DNA of 64,000 bases from Patescibacteria group bacterium (GCA_041650995.1 JBAZJZ010000001.1:71891-135890); one strand, 5' to 3'; shown: positions 3,100 to 57,425, counted from the first letter of the stretch. Notes: generated by a model from the letters alone, not told the origin. Made by a program: numbers and translations.

Positions 3100-4014
3100 A
3101 TGTTCTCGGCGTTATTACGTATTCTAAAATTTTCTTCTCAGGATTTCTGGAGAAATTTTTGGCTTTCCACGGCCACGATAGTAGTTTTGGTTTTGACATT
3201 GGTTTCCATAAATTTTTTAATAACTTTGAATTTTTTGACGAAAACTGCGGTAGCCGAAGTGGAAAATAAAATTGATGTCAGTATTTATTTTAAGCAGGGA
3301 GTGGCGGAAAGCGAAATCGGAAATATAAAATCATATCTTCTAAGTTTATCTACAGTGAAGGGCGTGAAATATGTTTCGCCCGAAGAAGCACTCCGAGAAT
3401 TTGAAAAAAAACATAAAAACGACGCGATAATTAAAGAATCGCTTGAAGAAGTCGGAGAAAATCCCCTGGGAGCGACGCTTGTAATCCGGGCGCATAACAC
3501 GGCGGATTATCCGGAGATTTTGAAAGTTTTTGACGCCGCGCAATACGTCAATATTATTCAAGAGAAAAATTTTGAAGATCACGAAGTCGTAATTAAAAAA
3601 ATTGATTCCATTTCGGAAAAAGCAAAGACAACAGGTGCGGGTCTCGCCGGACTTTTCGCCGTGATCGCGGTTTTGATCGGGTTTAACACGGTCCGTATGA
3701 CGATCTACACGCATCGCGAAGAAATTGGGGTGATGAAATTAGTCGGCGCGGCCAACTGGTTTGTCCGGGCGCCTTATGTCGCGAGCGGAATTTTTTACGG
3801 AATTTTTGCCGTGCTTTTCACGGTTTTAATTACCTTTCCGGCAATCGGTTTTGCCGAGCCGTATTTGGCAGGATTTTTCGGCGGTTCAGAATTCAATTTA
3901 CTCGGATATTTTTCAAATAATTTTCTGCAGATTTTTGGCTGGCAGTTTGTGGGCGTAGTTCTTCTGAATATGGTGACAAGCAGTCTGGCGGTCGGCCGGT
4001 ACTTGAAAGTTTAA
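3100..4014 (+). CDS. ftsX: cell division permease FtsX
   Basis: 304 aa; N-terminal TM, large extracytoplasmic domain, three C-terminal TM helices typical of the FtsX-like permease family; follows ftsE. Confidence 0.85.
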   Translation: MFSALLRILKFSSQDFWRNFWLSTATIVVLVLTLVSINFLITLNFLTKTAVAEVENKIDVSIYFKQGVAESEIGNIKSYLLSLSTVKGVKYVSPEEALREFEKKHKNDAIIKESLEEVGENPLGATLVIRAHNTADYPEILKVFDAAQYVNIIQEKNFEDHEVVIKKIDSISEKAKTTGAGLAGLFAVIAVLIGFNTVRMTIYTHREEIGVMKLVGAANWFVRAPYVASGIFYGIFAVLFTVLITFPAIGFAEPYLAGFFGGSEFNLLGYFSNNFLQIFGWQFVGVVLLNMVTSSLAVGRYLKV

Positions 4015-4065: not shown

Positions 4066-4139
4066 TTCCGGGATCGTCTAATGGCAGGACAGCAGCCTTT
4101 GAAGCTGTTTATCTTGGTTCGAATCCAAGTCCCGGAGCC
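4066..4139 (+). tRNA. tRNA-Gln (anticodon TTG)
   Basis: TCCGGGATCGTCTAATGGCAGGACAGCAGCCTTTGAAGCTGTTTATCTTGGTTCGAATCCAAGTCCCGGAGCCA; anticodon loop CTTTGAA; encoded CCA. Confidence 0.85.
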
Positions 4140-4244
4140 AAGGGAAAGTTTGGGTATCGACCCAGACTTTCCCTTGATCTCGCGGACGGGCGATTCAACC
4201 GAGCCCCCGAACCGGCCGCTTTGTCCTTCCGGCACCGAGGAGCC

Positions 4245-4267
4245 TTCGAATCCAAGTCCCGGAGCCA
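4245..4267 (+). repeat. direct copy 1 of tRNA-Gln 3' end (T-loop to CCA, 23/23 nt), preceded by conserved junction caccgaggagcc
   Basis: ttcgaatccaagtcccggagcca is identical to 4117-4139; it lies 105 nt downstream of the tRNA. Confidence 0.85.
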
Positions 4268-4273
4268 TTAAAT

Positions 4274-4447
4274 ATGAATAAAAACATAATTAGAATACTG
4301 TGTTTTGTTTTTGCTATACTGCTTGGTGTTTTTATGTTTGTATATGGGGAATTTGATGATAGCCCAGGAGGACAATTGCTCGGACTTATAGTAGTTGTCA
4401 TTGGCATTGTGGGTATTATAAGAAGTAAGAAAAAAATTTCAAACTAA
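4274..4447 (+). CDS. 58-aa predicted membrane protein carried between the two tRNA-Gln 3'-end repeats
   Basis: ATG at 4274, stop at 4445-4447; MNKNIIRILCFVFAILLGVFMFVYGEFDDSPGGQLLGLIVVVIGIVGIIRSKKKISN has two hydrophobic helices; below the 60-aa cut-off of the ORF track. Confidence 0.45.
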   Translation: MNKNIIRILCFVFAILLGVFMFVYGEFDDSPGGQLLGLIVVVIGIVGIIRSKKKISN

Positions 4448-4456
4448 CGAGGAGCC

Positions 4457-4479
4457 TTCGAATCCAAGTCCCGGAGCCA
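4457..4479 (+). repeat. direct copy 2 of tRNA-Gln 3' end (23/23 nt), preceded by acgaggagcc
   Basis: ttcgaatccaagtcccggagcca repeated a third time. Confidence 0.85.
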
Positions 4480-4527
4480 AAGAAAAGTACAGATTCTTGT
4501 TCTACACTTTTCCTTGGCTCGTGGTAG

Positions 4528-5691
4528 TTGTTTTTTAATATGGGTAATACTTTATTTGATAATTTTAATAGAACTTACGATGGCCCAGCTAACTATACGG
4601 AATCCGAGTTTGATTACTTAAATAAATCAGCACGTGAAGGTTGTGAAAATGCACGAAAATGTCTAGATTTGTGGTTTAGAGAATATTGCATTAGATACCC
4701 GTCTGCCATAAAAGATTTTAAAGGGCGATTCTGTTCTCAGAGTGATGAGCAGCATCTTGGAGCTATTACTGAACTTTATTTGCACAATTTTTTATTAAAA
4801 AGTGGTTATAATAAAATTGAGAATCATCCAGAGACAGAATCCGCCAAGCATCCAGAATTTTTAGTATTGGACGATGGTAAGCCCTTATTTTTTGCAGAAG
4901 CCGCTATGGTTTATGGTCGTAGAGATAGGGGTCGTGTAAAAAAATTCGAAGCAACCATACTTGATTCCATAAATACTATTGAATCACAAAATTTTTTAAT
5001 CTTAGTTGAAATAGAATCAGTTGATTCTAATCGGCCGCCCTCCACGAAAAAAATAAAAGAGTGTATCGAGAAACAATTAAATTGCCTGGATTACTGCGAA
5101 GTTCTAGAAAAAGATGAAGAGCAATATCCAAAATGGGAGTATAGAGAAAATAATTGGAAATTAAACTTTATTGCTTCTCCCATTGAGGCGGAGGCTCGTC
5201 ATTATCAAGATAGATTTCCTTCTAGGAATATTGGGAGCATTAATTACCCTATTAAACAAATTGAATTAGACGAAGAGATTAAGGAAACCGTTTCGAAAAA
5301 AAGCAAAAAGTATGGCAATTTAAGATTACCTTTTATTATTGTGTTAAATGTAATTAGCGACAGTATATTCTATAGCGATGAAGTGGCTATAAGCGCATTA
5401 TTTGGTAAGCGGACGGTTCAATCTGTCACTGATGCTAATGGCACAAGGACAATTAAGCAGGGACGTACATTTGATGGAATTATTGTACATCCAGGAACAG
5501 GCATTCAAAACACCAAGATGTCGGGCTTGTTAATAATGAAAAATCTTACTAGTTTTACATTAGAAAACGTCAAACCAGTTTTGTGGCATCATCCAAAAGC
5601 TAAATATCCATTTGATGTCAATTTTTTAAAAGATATTGATCATAAAATTTATAATCCTAGCAGCGGCAAAATGGAAGATAAAATGTCATAA
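4528..5691 (+). CDS. hypothetical protein (387 aa), orphan immediately downstream of the tRNA-Gln repeat cassette
   Basis: Long ORF with no family recognised by eye; codon and composition match the host AT-rich genome. Confidence 0.4.
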   Translation: MFFNMGNTLFDNFNRTYDGPANYTESEFDYLNKSAREGCENARKCLDLWFREYCIRYPSAIKDFKGRFCSQSDEQHLGAITELYLHNFLLKSGYNKIENHPETESAKHPEFLVLDDGKPLFFAEAAMVYGRRDRGRVKKFEATILDSINTIESQNFLILVEIESVDSNRPPSTKKIKECIEKQLNCLDYCEVLEKDEEQYPKWEYRENNWKLNFIASPIEAEARHYQDRFPSRNIGSINYPIKQIELDEEIKETVSKKSKKYGNLRLPFIIVLNVISDSIFYSDEVAISALFGKRTVQSVTDANGTRTIKQGRTFDGIIVHPGTGIQNTKMSGLLIMKNLTSFTLENVKPVLWHHPKAKYPFDVNFLKDIDHKIYNPSSGKMEDKMS

Positions 5692-5697
5692 TCAAAT

Positions 5698-6564
5698 ATG
5701 TCCGACTATATAATCCTAAAAACTAAACCCTCGGCTGATTACGAGCTAATTGATTCCGGAGAGGGAAAAAAATTGGAACGCTATGGGCGGTTTGTTTTTT
5801 CGCGCCCGGATCCGCAGGCCCTTTGGCCAAAATTAAATTTGGCCGCGTGGAAAAAAGTGGACGGCGAATTTAAGCGCAGCGCGGAATCGGCAGAATGGAA
5901 AATAAAGCGTGAAGTTCCCGGTCGTTGGCAGATAAATTTGGCGGGTTTGGATTTTTGGATAAAACCCACGACTTTTAAACATTTGGGAATTTTTCCGGAA
6001 CAAGTCGGAAATTGGGAATGGATTAAAAATTTGGTCGGTAAGGCGAAAAGAAAAGTTTCAGTCTTAAATCTTTTTGGCTATACGGGCGGCGCGACGCTTG
6101 CCGCGGCCGCGGCTGGCGCGGAAGTATGCCACTTGGATGGATCAAAAGTTGCGATTACCTGGGCGCGAGATAACGCGGCTTTGTCAAAATTAGATAAAAA
6201 ACCGATTCGCTGGATTTTGGAAGACGCGGTGAAATTCGTAAAACGGGAAATTAAACGCGGCCATCGCTATGAGGGAATTATTTTGGATCCGCCGGCGTTT
6301 GGTCACGGTCCAGGCGGTGAACTTTGGAAAATTGAAGATAATTTTTTAGAATTAATGGATTTGTGTTTTAAATTACTTTCCGAAAAGCCTCTATTTTTTC
6401 TGATAAATGGTTATGCTTCAGGATATTCGGCGACTGCTTATAAAAATAATTTGTTGCCGCTCGTTAAAAAATATGGCGGAACACTCGAGGCGGGAGAATT
6501 GACAATTGAAGAAAAAAGCGGCCGGCTCTTGCCTTGCGGAATTTTTGCGAGGTGGAATTCTTAA
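5698..6564 (+). CDS. class I SAM-dependent RNA methyltransferase (RlmI/RlmK-like, COG1092-type)
   Basis: 288 aa; LNLFGYTGGATLAAAAAGA (motif I) and ILDPPAFG (DPPxF motif IV) typical of the RlmI/YccW family. Confidence 0.6.
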   Translation: MSDYIILKTKPSADYELIDSGEGKKLERYGRFVFSRPDPQALWPKLNLAAWKKVDGEFKRSAESAEWKIKREVPGRWQINLAGLDFWIKPTTFKHLGIFPEQVGNWEWIKNLVGKAKRKVSVLNLFGYTGGATLAAAAAGAEVCHLDGSKVAITWARDNAALSKLDKKPIRWILEDAVKFVKREIKRGHRYEGIILDPPAFGHGPGGELWKIEDNFLELMDLCFKLLSEKPLFFLINGYASGYSATAYKNNLLPLVKKYGGTLEAGELTIEEKSGRLLPCGIFARWNS

Positions 6565-28896: not shown

Positions 28897-29005
28897 TTCT
28901 TTTTAAAACGGAGCCCCCAAACGAAGTTTGGGGAAACGCAGGGCGGCGAGCGTAGGGCAAGTCCCGGCCAGTTGGACGCAGCCGAAAGCTCGCAAGCCCA
29001 AGTAA

Positions 29006-30990: not shown

Positions 30991-31061
30991 GGGGGTGTAG
31001 TTCAGTGGTAGAACACTGGTCTCCAAAACCAGGGATGAGGGTTCGATTCCTTCCGCCCCCG
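30991..31061 (+). tRNA. tRNA-Trp (anticodon CCA)
   Basis: GGGGGTGTAGTTCAGTGGTAGAACACTGGTCTCCAAAACCAGGGATGAGGGTTCGATTCCTTCCGCCCCCG; loop CTCCAAA; CCA not encoded. Confidence 0.8.
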
Positions 31062-31166
31062 CTTGGATAAATAAATCACATTTGTGATTTGTTTATCCAT
31101 ATGAGCGGAGTTGGAGAGAAACCTCGCACTGTAAGTCCGTTGCGGCCGTTTCTGCACCGAGGAGCC

Positions 31167-31186
31167 TCCGATTCCTTCCGCCCCCG
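31167..31186 (+). repeat. direct copy of tRNA-Trp 3' end (T-loop to acceptor, 19/20 nt), preceded by caccgaggagcc, exactly 105 nt after the tRNA
   Basis: tccgattccttccgcccccg versus tRNA ttcgattccttccgcccccg; the 12-nt junction caccgaggagcc is identical to the one at the tRNA-Gln copies. Confidence 0.8.
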
Positions 31187-31721: not shown

Positions 31722-31820
31722 ATTTTGCCCCCAATAGAAAGTTTTGATTTAAAAAACAGGAATGTGAGTTCGCCAGAACCTGCTCCGAATCGGCCAAAAG
31801 CCGATTTTTAGTTTCCCTCC

Positions 31821-49949: not shown

Positions 49950-50054
49950 ATCTATAATTCAAGAAGGCGAGTCAAAAGGCTCGCTTTTCTCTTAGTTTTA
50001 GTTAGTGACAAATTTTTATAATTCTGATATACTGGAAATCAGTTAAAAATTTAC

Positions 50055-50132
50055 GGCCTCATCGTCTAGCCTGATCTAGGACGCCTCCCTCTCACGGAGG
50101 AAACTCGGGTTTAAATCCCGATGGGGCTACCA
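50055..50132 (+). tRNA. tRNA-Glu (anticodon CTC)
   Basis: ...CGCCTCCCTCTCACGGAGG... anticodon arm CCTCC/GGAGG with loop CTCTCAC, T-arm TCGGGTTTAAATCCCGA, encoded CCA; the exact 5' end of the acceptor stem is ambiguous (wobble pairs). Confidence 0.6.
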
Positions 50133-50283
50133 AAAATAAATTGGGAATTAAATATAAACTAGCAAAAAGAAATTACTGCGAATTTGTCTCGAGGGATTTA
50201 AACCAGGGAAGGGTCGGAAACCGTCAGGTTTCCGTTCGCGGAAATATTAAAACCGCAGGGTTTTAAAGAGCGAAGCGACGTTT

Positions 50284-50330
50284 AATTTCCCGATGGGGCT
50301 ACCAAAAATAAATTAGGAATTAAATATAAA
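50284..50330 (+). repeat. 44-bp direct repeat of the tRNA-Glu 3' end plus 30 nt of downstream sequence (compare 50114-50158), bracketing a 128-bp hairpin-rich insert
   Basis: tcccgatggggctaccaaaaataaattaggaattaaatataaa versus tcccgatggggctaccaaaaataaattgggaattaaatataaa (1 mismatch). Confidence 0.8.
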
Positions 50331-50334
50331 ATGT

Positions 50335-51021
50335 ATGATTACAAAAATTTCCGAAATTATTTTTTTGGTGGGTGTTTTGGCACTCGTGGGTGCTGGCTGT
50401 GGCAATAAAAATTCTGCTGATAACAGAGAACCAGCTGAAAGCGGTTTAACTAGTCTTTGCGACTCGGCCAAAGAAATGGAGGCACCCAGTGATTTAGCAA
50501 AAGAATTAAAAAAAATTTTTGAAGAAGCCGGCGGCAAGGTAAAAATAACCGATAGTGTTGAGCAAGATTTGGCAAATGGAGAAACCTTTACTTTTGTTTG
50601 GGAAAACACTCCTACAGCCAAGGATTTAGAAGATGCTTTTAAAAAGCACGGTTACAAAATAGAAGTGCCGGGTACAGCCATGGTGGTTTCAAAAAATGAT
50701 ATTGTTCTTGAAATTAATTTAACGGAAGAAGTTGAATGTTCGCAAATTATTGTTAAAAAAACAGAGGGGCCGTTTGATCGAGCCAGCAGAGTGACAATTA
50801 ATGAATGCGCGGAAATGAAGGCGCTAGCTCTCCATGCTGATATAAGAAATCATGATTTTGCTACCGCTATGATTTGGGGCAAAAAATTGTACGATAGAAT
50901 GATTGTGCTTGCGGCAAAATATGGTATCTCGGTGGAAAAACTCGAGACGACTTGCGAGGCGAAAGTTAATGAACCAGGGTTTGACAACGCGGTGGATGAA
51001 TGGGTGCGGTTATTAAAATAA
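50335..51021 (+). CDS. hypothetical lipoprotein
   Basis: Lipobox LALVGAGCG; 228 aa, no recognised domain. Confidence 0.4.
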   Translation: MITKISEIIFLVGVLALVGAGCGNKNSADNREPAESGLTSLCDSAKEMEAPSDLAKELKKIFEEAGGKVKITDSVEQDLANGETFTFVWENTPTAKDLEDAFKKHGYKIEVPGTAMVVSKNDIVLEINLTEEVECSQIIVKKTEGPFDRASRVTINECAEMKALALHADIRNHDFATAMIWGKKLYDRMIVLAAKYGISVEKLETTCEAKVNEPGFDNAVDEWVRLLK

Positions 51022-51768: not shown

Positions 51769-51771
51769 AAA

Positions 51772-51806
51772 GTAATTAGTAAATAGTAATTGATAATTGA
51801 TAATTG
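51772..51806 (+). repeat. tandem heptamers GTAATTA/GTAAATA/GTAATTG/ATAATTG x5 after the yidC stop
   Basis: gtaattagtaaatagtaattgataattgataattg. Confidence 0.6.
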
Positions 51807-51881
51807 AGTTTTGGAGCCAACTGAAAAGTTGGTTTTTGTATTTTCCCCTCTTAAGATAAGAGGGGATTAAGAGGAGGGAAC

Positions 51882-51910
51882 TTGACAAAATTTTATAGTT
51901 ATGTTATAAA
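51882..51910 (+). promoter_or_regulatory. consensus sigma70 promoter (TTGACA-17-TATAAA) driving the GC-rich ncRNA C; paralogous over about 30 nt to the minus-strand promoter at 18505-18536
   Basis: cTTGACAAAATTTTATAGTTATGTTATAAAAG versus (minus strand) cTTGACAAAATTATTAAAATATGTTAAAGTAAAG. Confidence 0.6.
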
Positions 51911-51916
51911 AGATAC

Positions 51917-52727
51917 GATACGGTGAAATGCCGTAAGCGGCTGGGTCCAAGAGGACGCCTTGGCTCTATCTGGCTCTTCATGCCACTGCGCAATGGATTG
52001 CGTGGTGGAATAATCTCCGCCCGTAAGGGAAAAATTAAAAAGCGAAGAAAGGGAGAAAAAGCGTCAATACCGGGCGCAAACAATCCGGTCTTGGCGCCAT
52101 GAAGATTCAGGAGATCTAAGGAGAGAGGGTTTGATTCCCTCCAGCCGCACTGGGTCTTGGTGGTAGCCGAGCAGCGGATTTCTGCATTGCTCACTGCGAT
52201 GTGGAAGGCCGACGGCAGCCATTGTGGGGTACGCGCTGCGAACCCCGCCATCAAGGCCAAAGATGGCGACTGACCTTGAATGGCAGTCGTCGATTCCTCG
52301 CTGACCTTCAAGAGTTGGCGAGCAGGGACTCTCTCTGCCAAGGGAGGGTCCGCCTGAAGCTTCCGCGAGCCTCGGCTCGCGTTGGCACAAAGTTGCGATC
52401 GCACAGCTCTGGTCATGGCTACCATGGGGATTTCCCCGAAAGCCTAAGTGCGATCGCGGCTCGCGACGTTCCATAGGGAGACGCTCGCGTTTCCTGAAGT
52501 TTCCCAGTCTCGTGCTGGGCGGAACGGCGCGGAATTTCAGCCCCCGGCGGACTTGCCCGCGCGATGGCGCTCGCATGCGTGAGCACGCGAAAAAGGCAAG
52601 TGTGGGTACCCCGGCTCTTCTGCGCCGCCCAGAAGAGCCACTTCAAAAGATCCTCTAAGCGCAGTTCGCTGCGCGGAGAGGTCTGCGATACGCGCCGTGA
52701 TGATTCATTCGTCACGGCGTTCTTTTT
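51917..52727 (+). ncRNA. candidate large structured ncRNA C (about 810 nt), GC-rich, with an embedded tRNA-like acceptor/T-arm domain; identity unknown
   Basis: GC much higher than the genome; only short overlapping ORFs in all frames with junk-like translations; 5' GCGGCTG (51937-51943) pairs perfectly with CAGCCGC (52142-52148) next to a T-arm GAGGG-TTTGATT-CCCTC; bounded by a promoter and a strong terminator. Confidence 0.5.
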
Positions 52728-52728
52728 T
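52693..52728 (+). terminator. intrinsic terminator of ncRNA C
   Basis: cgccgtgatgattcattcgtcacggcg followed by ttctttttt. Confidence 0.7.
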
Positions 52729-52738
52729 ATCTCTAATC

Positions 52739-52766
52739 TTGACAAAAAATAGAAAAGGACTATGAT
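52739..52766 (+). promoter_or_regulatory. sigma70 promoter (TTGACA-16-TATGAT) upstream of the SPFH gene
   Basis: TTGACA at 52739-52744, TATGAT at 52761-52766. Confidence 0.5.
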
Positions 52767-52811
52767 TAACCATAGAAACTTAAATATTAAATTTAAGATA
52801 CAAAATCAAAT

Positions 52812-55757: not shown

Positions 55758-57425
55758 ATGAACTTGCCAGAGCCTCTGCATAAACAATTTTCTAATCTCA
55801 TGGATGATATCCAAACGGGGAGGTTGAAGATACCTCAGTTTCAAAGAGAATTTGTTTGGGATATAAAAAAATCAGCAAGCCTACTCGATAGTATAATTAA
55901 AGGATATCCAGTTGGTACTTTTATTTTTTGGAAAACAAAAGATAGATTAAGATCTGTTAAAGATATAGGCAATCTGAATCTTCCAGAGCCGGCCGTCGGT
56001 GATTATGTTAATTTTGTCTTAGATGGTCAGCAACGAATTACCAGTCTTTTCGCTGCATTTAAGGGAGAAAAAATATTGAGAAGCGATGGAAAAACAGAGG
56101 ATTTTTCAGAAATATATATTGATTTAGACGCGAAGGAAGACGAAAAAATAGTTACTTCAGAGGTTGACGACGGGAATTCAAAAAATTTAATAAAATTAAA
56201 GGATTTGCTATATGGGGGAATTACATTTCTCGCCAAATATCCAGAAAACTACCTGCATAAACTTGAAGAATACAAAAAGAGAATTGAATCTTATAATTAT
56301 TCCGTGATACAGGTTAATGAAGTACCCATAGATGTTGCTACTGAAATTTTTACAAGAATCAATGTTGGTGGTAAGCCACTGTCGTTATTTGAAATTATGG
56401 TTGCAAAGACATATGACTATGACAAAAATTTTGAACTTTCTGAAAAATTTGATGCCCTAGTTGAAAATTTAAAAAATGTTAATTACGAAACTATTTCTGA
56501 TGCAACGGTATTACAGATTATTTCTTTAATATTAACAAAAGAATGCAAGAGAAAAATTATTTTAAAATTGAAGAAAGATGAATTTATTGACAAGTGGGAC
56601 GAAGTTGTAAACGCAATCGAAAGCGCGGTGGATTACTTTAGAAGTTTCTACAGAATTCCTGTTTCGCAGATACTGCCGTATAATGCTTTGCTTGTGCCAT
56701 TTTCATATTTTTTCTACTACCATAAGGACAAACCGACCGGAGACAAACAAAAATACCTTCAAGATTTTTTTTGGCGAGTATCTTTATCCGGTAGATATTC
56801 ATCGTCGGTTGAAAGTAAATTAGCGCAGGACATTAAGAGAATAGATAAAATTTTAGAAGATAAATTACCGGATTATGACTGGCCAATTAATTTATCGCCC
56901 GAATTCATAAAAAATAATGGCTGGTTTAGCGCCGGCAGAAGTTATATAAAAGCAATATTATGTATCTATGCCTATCACCAGCCAAAATCTTTTAACGACA
57001 ACTCACTTGTAAATATTAGTAATTACTGGTTAAAACAAGCGAATAGCAAAAATTATCATCATTTTTTTCCACGTGCCTATTTAAGTAGATTGAATAAAGA
57101 TGAAAAAATGATAAATCATATAGCTAACATAACTATTGTCGACGATTTTCTTAATAAAAGAGAAATTAAAGATAAGCCGCCATCCAAGTACATGGAAAAA
57201 TTTAAAAAAGAAAACCCTCATCTTTCAGAAACAATGAAAACCCACCTGATTAATGATATTGATAATATGGGAATTTGGGAAGATAATTATGAATTGTTTT
57301 TTGAAAAAAGAATTGAATCGATTAGTAAGGATATTGAAAAAAGAATAATCCCACAAGAAATTGATGGGAAACCACAGGCTGATTTATCGGATGATGACTC
57401 CGTAGAAAGTTCAGAACAAGAATAG
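55758..57425 (+). CDS. DUF262 (ParB-like NTPase) plus DUF1524 (His-Me finger nuclease) fusion protein, GmrSD-like type IV modification-dependent restriction enzyme
   Basis: N-terminal IPQFQREFVWD (DGQQR-type DUF262 motif region, LDGQQRITSL present) and C-terminal NYHHFFPRAYL...NHIANITIV HNH-like DUF1524 block; inserted between hsp20 and dnaK. Confidence 0.6.
   Translation: MNLPEPLHKQFSNLMDDIQTGRLKIPQFQREFVWDIKKSASLLDSIIKGYPVGTFIFWKTKDRLRSVKDIGNLNLPEPAVGDYVNFVLDGQQRITSLFAAFKGEKILRSDGKTEDFSEIYIDLDAKEDEKIVTSEVDDGNSKNLIKLKDLLYGGITFLAKYPENYLHKLEEYKKRIESYNYSVIQVNEVPIDVATEIFTRINVGGKPLSLFEIMVAKTYDYDKNFELSEKFDALVENLKNVNYETISDATVLQIISLILTKECKRKIILKLKKDEFIDKWDEVVNAIESAVDYFRSFYRIPVSQILPYNALLVPFSYFFYYHKDKPTGDKQKYLQDFFWRVSLSGRYSSSVESKLAQDIKRIDKILEDKLPDYDWPINLSPEFIKNNGWFSAGRSYIKAILCIYAYHQPKSFNDNSLVNISNYWLKQANSKNYHHFFPRAYLSRLNKDEKMINHIANITIVDDFLNKREIKDKPPSKYMEKFKKENPHLSETMKTHLINDIDNMGIWEDNYELFFEKRIESISKDIEKRIIPQEIDGKPQADLSDDDSVESSEQE

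Follow-up and report, generated by a model that had tools for sequence, protein, structure and literature searches.

Williams is said to have distinguished, in 2002, a T-loop sublocation class among integrations into tRNA genes. Cis-mobilizable elements (CIMEs) are kilobase-sized and are defined by the att sites of a known integrative and conjugative element, and miniature inverted-repeat transposable elements (MITEs) are bounded by terminal inverted repeats and by target duplications that are short and of fixed length. Sites of the attB type in the T-loop are known, for example for mycobacteriophage Ms6 (PMC1762012), and a study of tycheposons has described tRNA-seeded islands with arrays of partial tRNAs between successive insertions (10.1101/2020.12.28.424599). 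Patescibacteria have tiny genomes, and their gene gain is very little understood. Here we analyze a stretch of 64,000 nucleotides from a Patescibacteria group bacterium (GCA_041650995.1 JBAZJZ010000001.1:71891-135890; hereafter the window, numbered from its first nucleotide), in which a short non-coding element ending in a partial tRNA copy lies behind the tRNA-Trp gene (positions 31062-31186). We describe the anatomy of this element, the family to which it belongs, a second family of the same design, their precise presence and absence in relatives, their arrays and their target-matched antisense segment. On balance we favor the reading that both families are miniature non-autonomous elements which recombine in the T-loop of their cognate tRNA gene and are moved in trans.

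Results

A Repeated Unit Behind tRNA-Trp and tRNA-Gln

The tRNA-Trp gene (CCA anticodon; 30991-31061; ARAGORN, Rfam tRNA 71.8 bits) is one of nine tRNA genes in the window (ARAGORN; Rfam gathering-threshold scan), which has a GC content of 42%. The genes for tRNA-Trp, tRNA-Gln and tRNA-Glu and the element parts and repeats located behind them all lie on the plus strand. The segment of tRNA-Trp from the T-loop to G73 (31042-31061; tRNA positions 54-73) forms the left of two direct repeats. The right one, TCCGATTCCTTCCGCCCCCG, was found at 31167-31186, and its alignment to tRNA positions 54-73 bore out the 19/20 copy reported in an initial annotation made from the sequence alone, the difference being a change of U55 to C.

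A 16-bp hairpin (31064-31099; 15 Watson-Crick pairs and one G:U pair by folding) forms the left part of the unit, which we assign to family 1. It had been described as a perfect palindrome; the hairpin stands, and its strict perfection does not, as one of the 16 pairs is G.T/U. No U-tract lies 3' of the stem, the fold energy is -20.2 kcal/mol for the sense strand vs. -15.9 kcal/mol for the antisense strand, and homologous hairpins with compensatory changes are present in relatives. The region between this hairpin and the junction block is a GC-rich core. Here lie the anti-T-loop segment GGAGTTGGAG (31107-31116; minimum free energy and centroid folds), which is complementary to CTCCGATTCC (31166-31175) with two G:U pairs included, and a small hairpin, P2, made up of CYGYAA, a 5-nt loop and TTGYGG (31129-31145; from family-1 alignments). 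The junction block itself, GCACCGAGGAGCC (31154-31166), is the constant right end of family 1.

The tRNA-Gln gene (TTG anticodon; 4067-4140; ARAGORN and Rfam; left direct repeat 4118-4140) is followed by a family-1 element at 4141-4244 (nhmmer E = 2.5e-11), which has an orthologue in L070 (L numbers denote loci from other assemblies). Its parts are a hairpin (4141-4174), an antisense stretch consisting of CTCGCGGAC (4179-4187) and GATTCAA (4192-4198), and the junction block (4232-4244), behind which lies a second tRNA-Gln T-loop-to-CCA copy (T54-A76; 4245-4267; 23/23 match). The same 13-mer occupies 31154-31166 and 4232-4244, confirming the identical junction string of the initial annotation. 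Its further claim of an identical 105-nt spacer holds for the similar layout and not for the identity, which depends on the tRNA end chosen; the repeat period is 125 nt at tRNA-Trp and 127 nt at tRNA-Gln. Similarly, a cggccg..ttt motif is present in the spacers as proposed, and its conservation across family 1 is poor.

The junction 12-mer occurs twice in the window against 0.11 times expected from shuffles, and the 9-mer CGAGGAGCC three times against 0.29 expected, each time with a copy of the cognate tRNA 3' end directly after it. The third occurrence, absent from the initial annotation, belongs to a second tRNA-Gln cassette (4268-4479) that consists of the open reading frame (ORF) ORF57, CGAGGAGCC (4448-4456) and a third 23/23 tRNA-Gln copy (4457-4479). 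ORF57 (4274-4447) is a 57-aa, two-helix membrane ORF with a weak holin-like PHROG match (E = 0.0013). The cassette recurs in L019 and L070, where it ends likewise in junction and copy.

Other features of the tRNA-Gln locus were recorded alongside. The GGAG of the upstream tRNA-Gln copy lies 9 nt before the ATG of ORF57 and resembles a ribosome-binding site. A 387-aa ORF (4528-5691) directly behind the last copy had no match in Pfam, NCBIfam, PHROGs or PDB sequences, and its position is held by different genes in L069, L070 and L071. Among homologues of the FtsX gene (3100-4014 in the window), many of the carrying contigs are merely 1-2 kb long, and the repeated tRNA-Gln copies nearby may break assemblies.

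Family 1 in Other Genomes

An exact scan for GCACCGAGGAGCCTNCGANTCC over one genome per species returned 11 matches. In seven cases, all from Patescibacteria metagenome-assembled genomes, the match sits shortly behind a tRNA (four tRNA-Trp, two tRNA-Asn, one tRNA-Gln), and in these the T-loop-to-3' stretch fits the adjoining tRNA, save in the decayed or rearranged L003 and L009; the remaining four were chance matches in unrelated genomes. A relaxed scan of metagenomes placed 9 of 41 matches beside tRNAs (L012, L019, L032, L040, L043, L046 and three duplicates), the others being chance matches within a conserved coding gene. Further members were sampled through homologues of neighboring proteins, blind to the element itself. 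Altogether the family-1 unit was found in about 19 places of other Patescibacteria assemblies, behind tRNA-Trp (two sequence types), tRNA-Gln, tRNA-Asn (two types) and two further, unidentified tRNAs. The initial annotation had interpreted the units as a family, either of small elements or of recombination products, with the tRNA 3' segment as their site, and had left it to be seen whether the junction and T-loop would turn up beyond the two window loci; their recurrence beside tRNAs in many Patescibacteria assemblies supports that proposal. Not noticed in it were the second family at tRNA-Glu, the anti-T-loop segment and the status of the downstream copy as the original 3' end, which are described below.

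In every family-1 case from the collection scans the sequence switches into the cognate tRNA exactly at T54, as had been claimed for the two window loci. The interior measures 103-111 nt in 17 members and follows a fixed order: tRNA 3' end, long sequence-variable hairpin, purine-rich block (GGAGTTGGAGAGAA and variants), small hairpin (CCGYAA-loop-TTGCGG when aligned), linker (with an extra CCGAGGA in some members), junction block, and the cognate tRNA from T54 onward. Junction and T-loop together are conserved over 22 nt across tRNA types. GCACCGAGGAGCC is identical in most copies, with four right ends carrying one to three substitutions. The right-hand unit is intact and the left repeat decayed in L040 and L012.

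Two other explanations of the anatomy were tried and rejected. L046, in which tRNA-Trp has an apparent 59-nt insert at 53/54, suggested an intron in the T-loop, but as a general explanation this fails because a complete tRNA normally stands upstream; L046 and L003, which have a degenerate anticodon stem and no ARAGORN tRNA call, read best as deletion derivatives. A second tRNA or tRNA-like gene was set aside as well, as the T-stem 3' strands vary and pairing of the constant block with them is impossible, and as an acceptor 5' strand is lacking.

A Second Family at tRNA-Glu

Behind tRNA-Glu (CTC anticodon; 50055-50132; ARAGORN), which has a promoter-like site rated good upstream of it (50005-50033), we found a 148-nt insert of a second family (50133-50280; nhmmer E = 7e-31). 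It consists of an AT-rich left part, an anti-T-loop segment GGGATTTAAACC (50193-50204), a two-hairpin scaffold and the end ...GCGACG. A 50-nt direct repeat follows (50281-50330), comprising a T-loop-through-CCA copy of tRNA-Glu and 26 nt of repeated flank; in the copy, TTTAATTT replaces the T-loop TTTAAAT. The interior is unrelated to that of family 1, and homologous inserts lie behind tRNA-Glu in L064 and tRNA-Tyr in L005, so that the two families have unrelated sequences and one design. Behind the family-2 element of the window lies a 228-aa ORF (50335-51021) that five related loci lack, the tRNA being followed there by yidC; L064 keeps the element.

Occupied and Empty Sites

Orthologous tRNA loci of relatives were compared for presence of the elements. 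The tRNA-Trp site is occupied in the window, in L002, in L053 (neighboring protein 83% identical) and in L058 (69%), and empty in L055 (83%) and L061 (67%). At tRNA-Glu, a family-2 element is present in L064 as well as in the window; L063, L065, L066 and L067 have empty sites. At tRNA-Gln, L071 is empty and L069 has one element. Within genomes the sites vary one by one: the genome of L055 and L064 is empty at Trp and occupied at Glu, and that of L053 and L065 shows the reverse. The borders between empty and occupied alleles are precise at Trp (L058 vs. L061; L053 vs. L055) and at Glu, with the empty Gln allele seen in L071. As orthologous tRNA loci of close relatives are precisely empty or occupied, the element is a discrete insertion or deletion.

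L058 (occupied) and L061 (empty) have the downstream gene in common, and what follows the copy in L058 (CCAgaaataaataatt...ATG) is the counterpart of what follows the uninterrupted tRNA in L061 (CCAtgaaaataataatt...ATG). It is thus the downstream copy that represents the original 3' end, still joined to the flank it had before, and the 3' end now borne by tRNA-Trp, with CTT and the hairpin behind it, arrived with the insert. The upstream tRNAs were called intact (ARAGORN, Rfam), and direct repeats of the tRNA 3' part flank the inserts. These repeats measure 20, 23, 26 or 50 nt and all begin at T54; because their length varies while the start stays the same, they are not a target duplication of fixed length.

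Several loci hold arrays. The window has the order tRNA-Gln, element, copy, ORF57, copy; L070 has tRNA-Gln, element, copy, element, copy, ORF57, copy. In L046 the gene for a 368-aa esterase is bounded by tRNA-Trp copies, its cassette ending in GCACCGAGGAGTC, copy and CCA, and this esterase gene is also found behind a decayed tRNA-Trp copy in L002. In the window, comparison with L002, L003 and L046 showed a decayed older layer behind a Bact_hydrolase gene (31722-31790), in which a piece of the tRNA-Trp acceptor 3' strand (ttttgccccc) survives together with a degenerate 3' half of tRNA-Trp; decayed layers are also present in L053, L003 and L046.

The T-loop differs between tRNA and copy. All tRNA-Trp elements with a GCACCGAGGAGCC junction have TCCGATT in the copy, and L058, with a variant junction, has TTCGATT. 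Empty tRNA-Trp sites and some occupied tRNAs have TTCGATT (U55), and the tRNA-Trp itself has TCCGATT (C55) in L002, L006, L043 and L053. In family 2 the T-loop of the copy shows a family-typical change of AAAT to AATT. These variants are consistent with the T-loop being part of the crossover region, as it is in the known T-loop attB sites, and the U55C T-loop in some tRNA-Trp genes suggests that the elements can alter the tRNA itself.

Folding and the Anti-T-Loop Segment

In family 2 the anti-T-loop segment sits just before the conserved scaffold. That of the window tRNA-Glu (GGGATTTAAACC, plus strand) is a 12/12 reverse complement of the T-arm GGTTTAAATCCC, that of tRNA-Glu in L064 an 11/11 reverse complement of its cognate T-arm, and that of tRNA-Tyr in L005 (GATTTGCAC) a 9/9 reverse complement of GTGCAAATC. 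Because these T-loops are non-palindromic, the segment is a genuine antisense sequence. Its counterpart in family 1 is weaker and includes G:U pairs: GGAGTTGGAG vs. CTCCGATTCC at Trp, GGGGTTCGGA at Asn, GGATTTGA and GATTTGAA at Gln, and GGTTGAG vs. TTCGACT in L040.

For quantification, a test of ungapped runs replaced one of duplex energy for cognate vs. non-cognate targets, which was too noisy because the interiors are GC-rich. The longest exact antisense runs were the 12, 11 and 9 nt of family 2, compared with at most 7 nt behind 43 tRNAs without a copy. Runs of Watson-Crick and G:U pairs averaged 9.2 for tRNAs with a copy and 6.5 for those without (Mann-Whitney p = 5e-7, a test that ignores sequence relatedness). 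The anti-T-loop-to-copy stem occurs in both non-coding families and is missing from the ORF57 and esterase cassettes.

The same fold was obtained for 3/3 members of family 2, with a closing helix of anti-T-loop and copy T-loop around two or three hairpins (z = -2.0, -4.4 and -7.1); the consensus of the three sequences has -22.96 kcal/mol and 4 compensatory pairs, and the stem a conserved T.T imperfection at position 59. For family 1 the named structure was 83% paired, against 32-49% when slid. Across 13 members the anti-T-loop helix had 83% of cells paired; P2 had 91%, and its changes were all wobble. P1 was dropped as a locally conserved hairpin, as its pairing is not maintained across family 1. 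On the tRNA-sense strand, G:U stem cells outnumber A.C cells in the hairpins (18 vs. 4), the anti-T-loop helix (30 vs. 8) and P2 (12 vs. 2), an excess which suggests that the sense strand is the one that folds, either as RNA or as single-stranded DNA. The cores are GC-rich (50-70%), and a promoter scan gave no promoter-like site inside the elements. According to these models, the interior of both families would fold on the tRNA-sense strand, and the complement of the cognate T-loop can pair with the T-loop of the adjacent copy.

Other Features at tRNA Genes

Further irregularities were noted at tRNA genes of the window and its relatives. In the window, a 109-nt, 58% GC spacer between tRNA-Thr(GGT) and tRNA-Tyr (28897-29005) contains a hairpin resembling a terminator and another strong stem (z = -2.7); this spacer measures 51 to 336 nt in relatives. 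In L005 (2195-2530) and L069 (about 4470-4792), small GIY-YIG nuclease ORFs with GC-rich hairpins are inserted at the 5' side of tRNA-Tyr and tRNA-Gln, between direct repeats that reproduce the initial 12-13 nt of the tRNA region; they mirror, on the 5' side, the elements found on the 3' side. Rearrangements with breakpoints in the anticodon loop were seen in L069 (2475-2623), L070 (2420-2503) and L003 (4457-4632): one has a GC-rich insert with a tRNA-Thr 5'-end repeat, another the 5' half of an old tRNA-Thr with a complete but different tRNA-Thr behind it, and a third a new-type tRNA-Trp ahead of an old tRNA-Trp 3' remnant. L063 has a GC-rich block of roughly 200 nt upstream of tRNA-Glu (about 4450-4620). 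In L063, L064 and L066 (about 5590-5860), odd ARAGORN calls ('tRNA-SeC', 'tRNA-???') fall between yidC and a Band_7 gene; the counterpart of this interval in the window (51770-52810) has no annotated plus-strand gene. Away from the tRNAs, a gene for a GmrSD-type restriction endonuclease (55758-57425; strong PADLOC match, PDC-M55C/HEC-05) lies between grpE and dnaK of an hrcA-grpE-dnaK-dnaJ cluster.

Discussion

The reading that we favor, with a confidence somewhat above even, is that of two families of miniature non-autonomous elements whose recombination takes place in the T-loop of the cognate tRNA gene and which move in trans. An element would enter a specific tRNA gene by a crossover in the T-loop and supply its own T-loop-to-3' end, leaving the tRNA intact; in family 1 the insert would also bring the hairpin directly behind the tRNA. 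The original 3' end and its flank would be pushed downstream to become the copy behind the constant right end (GCACCGAGGAGCC in family 1, ...GACG in family 2), and repeated insertion at one tRNA would build arrays in which every unit ends in junction block and copy. Both non-coding families contain no ORF and, because the elements encode no protein, a recombinase made elsewhere would have to move them. As to the chemistry, we infer an exchange of the tyrosine-recombinase type; the action in trans and a purpose of the fold are proposed on the same footing.

Several points weigh against this reading. Pfam searches gave no integrase, transposase or other recombinase among the roughly 48 window ORFs, and no recombinase gene beside any element in about 20 loci; neither did NCBIfam, PHROGs, PADLOC and PDB sequence searches of window neighbors of unassigned function, and Phage_integrase, recombinase, rve and transposase families had no match in the window or flanking genes. 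Scans of genomes, metagenomes and viral sequences found no full-length integrase-bearing relative with the same ends, pattern scans for junction and scaffold gave nothing in 2.9 M viral contigs, and blastn gave no match to phage records; nor did a plasmid counterpart emerge. The empty sites could be losses through direct-repeat recombination and not independent gains. A double-stranded circle of 125 bp is an implausible intermediate, the junction block is unlike the T-stem 5' half-site expected of a symmetric core site, and the family's switch to a new tRNA without a prior chimeric tRNA has no explanation. For the named structure of family 1 there was no covariation beyond shuffles, and RNAalifold gave no consensus. 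Finally, the T-loop TCCGATT also occurs in a tRNA-Gly without an element, which weakens the argument from C55.

Like the tRNA-Trp genes of L002, L006, L043 and L053, tRNA-Gly in L069 and L071 has the T-loop TCCGATT, with a C at the normally invariant U55. A phage or plasmid origin was also considered and rejected; the 12 matches to the P2 motif in viral contigs were due to chance, in unrelated contexts.

The main alternative, which we consider unlikely, is a structured non-coding RNA, native to the host or domesticated, that is transcribed together with the tRNA ahead of it, passed on vertically and occasionally lost through recombination of the 20-50-nt direct repeats; its antisense-to-copy stem would mimic part of a tRNA or serve as a processing or stability signal. 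Such an RNA would suit cores of 50-70% GC in a 42% GC genome, stems that favor the sense strand and the consistent multi-branch fold of family 2 with its compensatory pairs. It is also in keeping with the lack of an internal promoter-like site, hence reading from the tRNA promoter, with the 22-nt conservation of junction and T-loop across tRNA types, and with the right-hand unit that stays intact beside a decayed left repeat in L040 and L012. However, Rfam holds no such family (at gathering thresholds the window gave only the 9 tRNAs, and E-value scans of both loci gave noise), and family 1 lacks significant covariation. The occupancy is patchy site by site among genomes whose neighboring proteins are 83-91% identical, duplicate elements stand in tandem at one tRNA, coding cassettes share the junction-and-copy end without the core, and two unrelated families have one design.

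Very unlikely, in our judgment, is that the elements are dead scars of large integrase-bearing islands or prophages that lost their interior and retained the attL-side and attR-side ends. Islands seeded at tRNA genes typically contain partial tRNA copies and degenerate remnants, and decayed layers exist in the window (31722-31790), L053, L003 and L046. Yet scars would hardly have an interior held at 103-111 nt in 17 copies and at least 5 different tRNAs, conserved internal blocks, and hairpins maintained by compensatory and wobble changes; there are also the tandem elements, and no integrase-bearing parent with the same ends came from the genome, metagenome and viral scans.

We give a similarly low probability to a folded single strand acting as the recombination site in the manner of an integron attC, with the tRNA T-arm in the part of attI. 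By this analogy the anti-T-loop and the T-loop copy would form a double-stranded core on single-stranded DNA, which would make tiny cassettes feasible even at 125 nt, a length insufficient for a double-stranded circle. A variable or structured middle does lie between an inverted match, the anti-T-loop, and a direct one, the copy, like R''/R', the family-2 stem has its conserved T.T imperfection at position 59, pairing is biased to one strand, and the arrays mix cassettes with and without ORFs. On the other side, no intI-like gene was found and the junction and T-loop sequences do not fit the GTTRRRY core, the ORF cassettes have no anti-T-loop, the region adjoining the stem does not extend as an L''/L' helix, and the proposal rests wholly on analogy.

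Least probable of all is a guide-type RNA for an RNA-guided recombinase or nuclease encoded elsewhere (cf. IS110 bridge RNA, TnpB omega RNA), in which the scaffold would be constant and the anti-T-loop and 3' copy programmable, pairing with the two strands of the tRNA gene: it would account for retargeting to different tRNAs, and it draws on two target-matched modules around a constant scaffold in two unrelated families, on a 20-23-nt target-identical stretch that begins exactly at the end of the constant block, like a 3' guide from flanking DNA, and on folding that favors the sense strand, but Pfam gave no TnpB, IscB, IS110-like or Cas gene in the window or fetched loci, no Rfam guide-RNA family matched, the two 'guides' are mutually complementary and would pair together, the copy is merely the displaced original tRNA end, and its T-loop often differs from that of the tRNA at the would-be seed positions.

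Under the favored reading of miniature elements moved in trans, the fold could be the recombination site itself, attC-like, or a mask for the duplicated tRNA segment in the transcript; a guide is the least likely of the three roles and the most interesting. A wider possibility, to which we give little weight, is that the elements are the visible half of an undescribed Patescibacteria recombination system. A small folded RNA or single-stranded DNA would pick its target by pairing with the T-loop and work with a recombinase encoded elsewhere, a change in the anti-T-loop would retarget it, and the same machinery would load promoterless cassettes behind tRNA genes, in an integron-like or bridge-RNA-like way.

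These loci bear on how such small genomes acquire sequence. tRNA genes serve in them as loading docks behind which small cassettes accumulate that differ among close relatives, and the unit nearest the dock is a protein-free, conserved, folded element that is base-complementary to its own tRNA target. If mobile in trans, these would be the smallest tRNA-integrating elements of which we are aware and would offer a handle for tracing the recombinase that serves them; if the target is chosen by base pairing, they would represent a new, compact and possibly programmable form of site selection. In practical terms, the partial tRNA copies may account for assembly breaks at element loci and are a source of false tRNA-fragment annotation.

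Comparison With Known Systems

CIMEs and MITEs resemble the present elements in having no mobility genes, in keeping their ends, in a presumed mobilization in trans or in cis, and in being small and repeated. Here, however, each direct repeat consists of 20-50 nt of tRNA sequence, and a parent element is not known; terminal inverted repeats are lacking, the sole inverted match being the internal one between anti-T-loop and copy. The IS110 bridge RNA and the IS200/IS605 TnpB omega RNA likewise combine a constant scaffold with target-matched sequence and have a target-identical stretch running from the element end, whereas here there is no effector gene and no sequence or Rfam similarity, and the target-matched parts are mutually complementary.

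Integron gene cassettes and attC sites share several traits of the layout: arrays of promoterless cassettes, some of them ORF-less, a cassette that ends in a site with two inverted parts able to pair on one strand, and a crossover at a 7-nt core common to the acceptor site. The difference is that the elements described here have no intI, no attI/Pc platform and no R/L box consensus, that the acceptor is the tRNA T-arm, and that the ORF cassettes are without the inverted part.

The tycheposons of Prochlorococcus (10.1101/2020.12.28.424599) are alike in a streamlined host genome, in repeated insertion at the proximal tRNA, in partial tRNA copies between units, and in decayed older layers and varied cargo downstream. 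Theirs are tRNA-specific tyrosine recombinases, of which none was seen here, and the tRNA-proximal unit is here a conserved, non-coding, structured element.

Full-text literature searches found no description of these elements. Because the integrase, intI and effector features that were looked for were not found, we do not file them in a defined family; they look like an undescribed variant of tRNA-integrating elements that stands outside any such family. With the elements that integrate at the T-loop, such as Ms6, they have in common the T-loop crossover, an element-supplied T-loop-to-3' end and a displaced 3' end as the far direct repeat. Unlike those, they are 125-170 bp long and non-coding, with no integrase in cis or in 64 kb, and they have one conserved right end for several tRNAs and an internal antisense copy of the T-loop.

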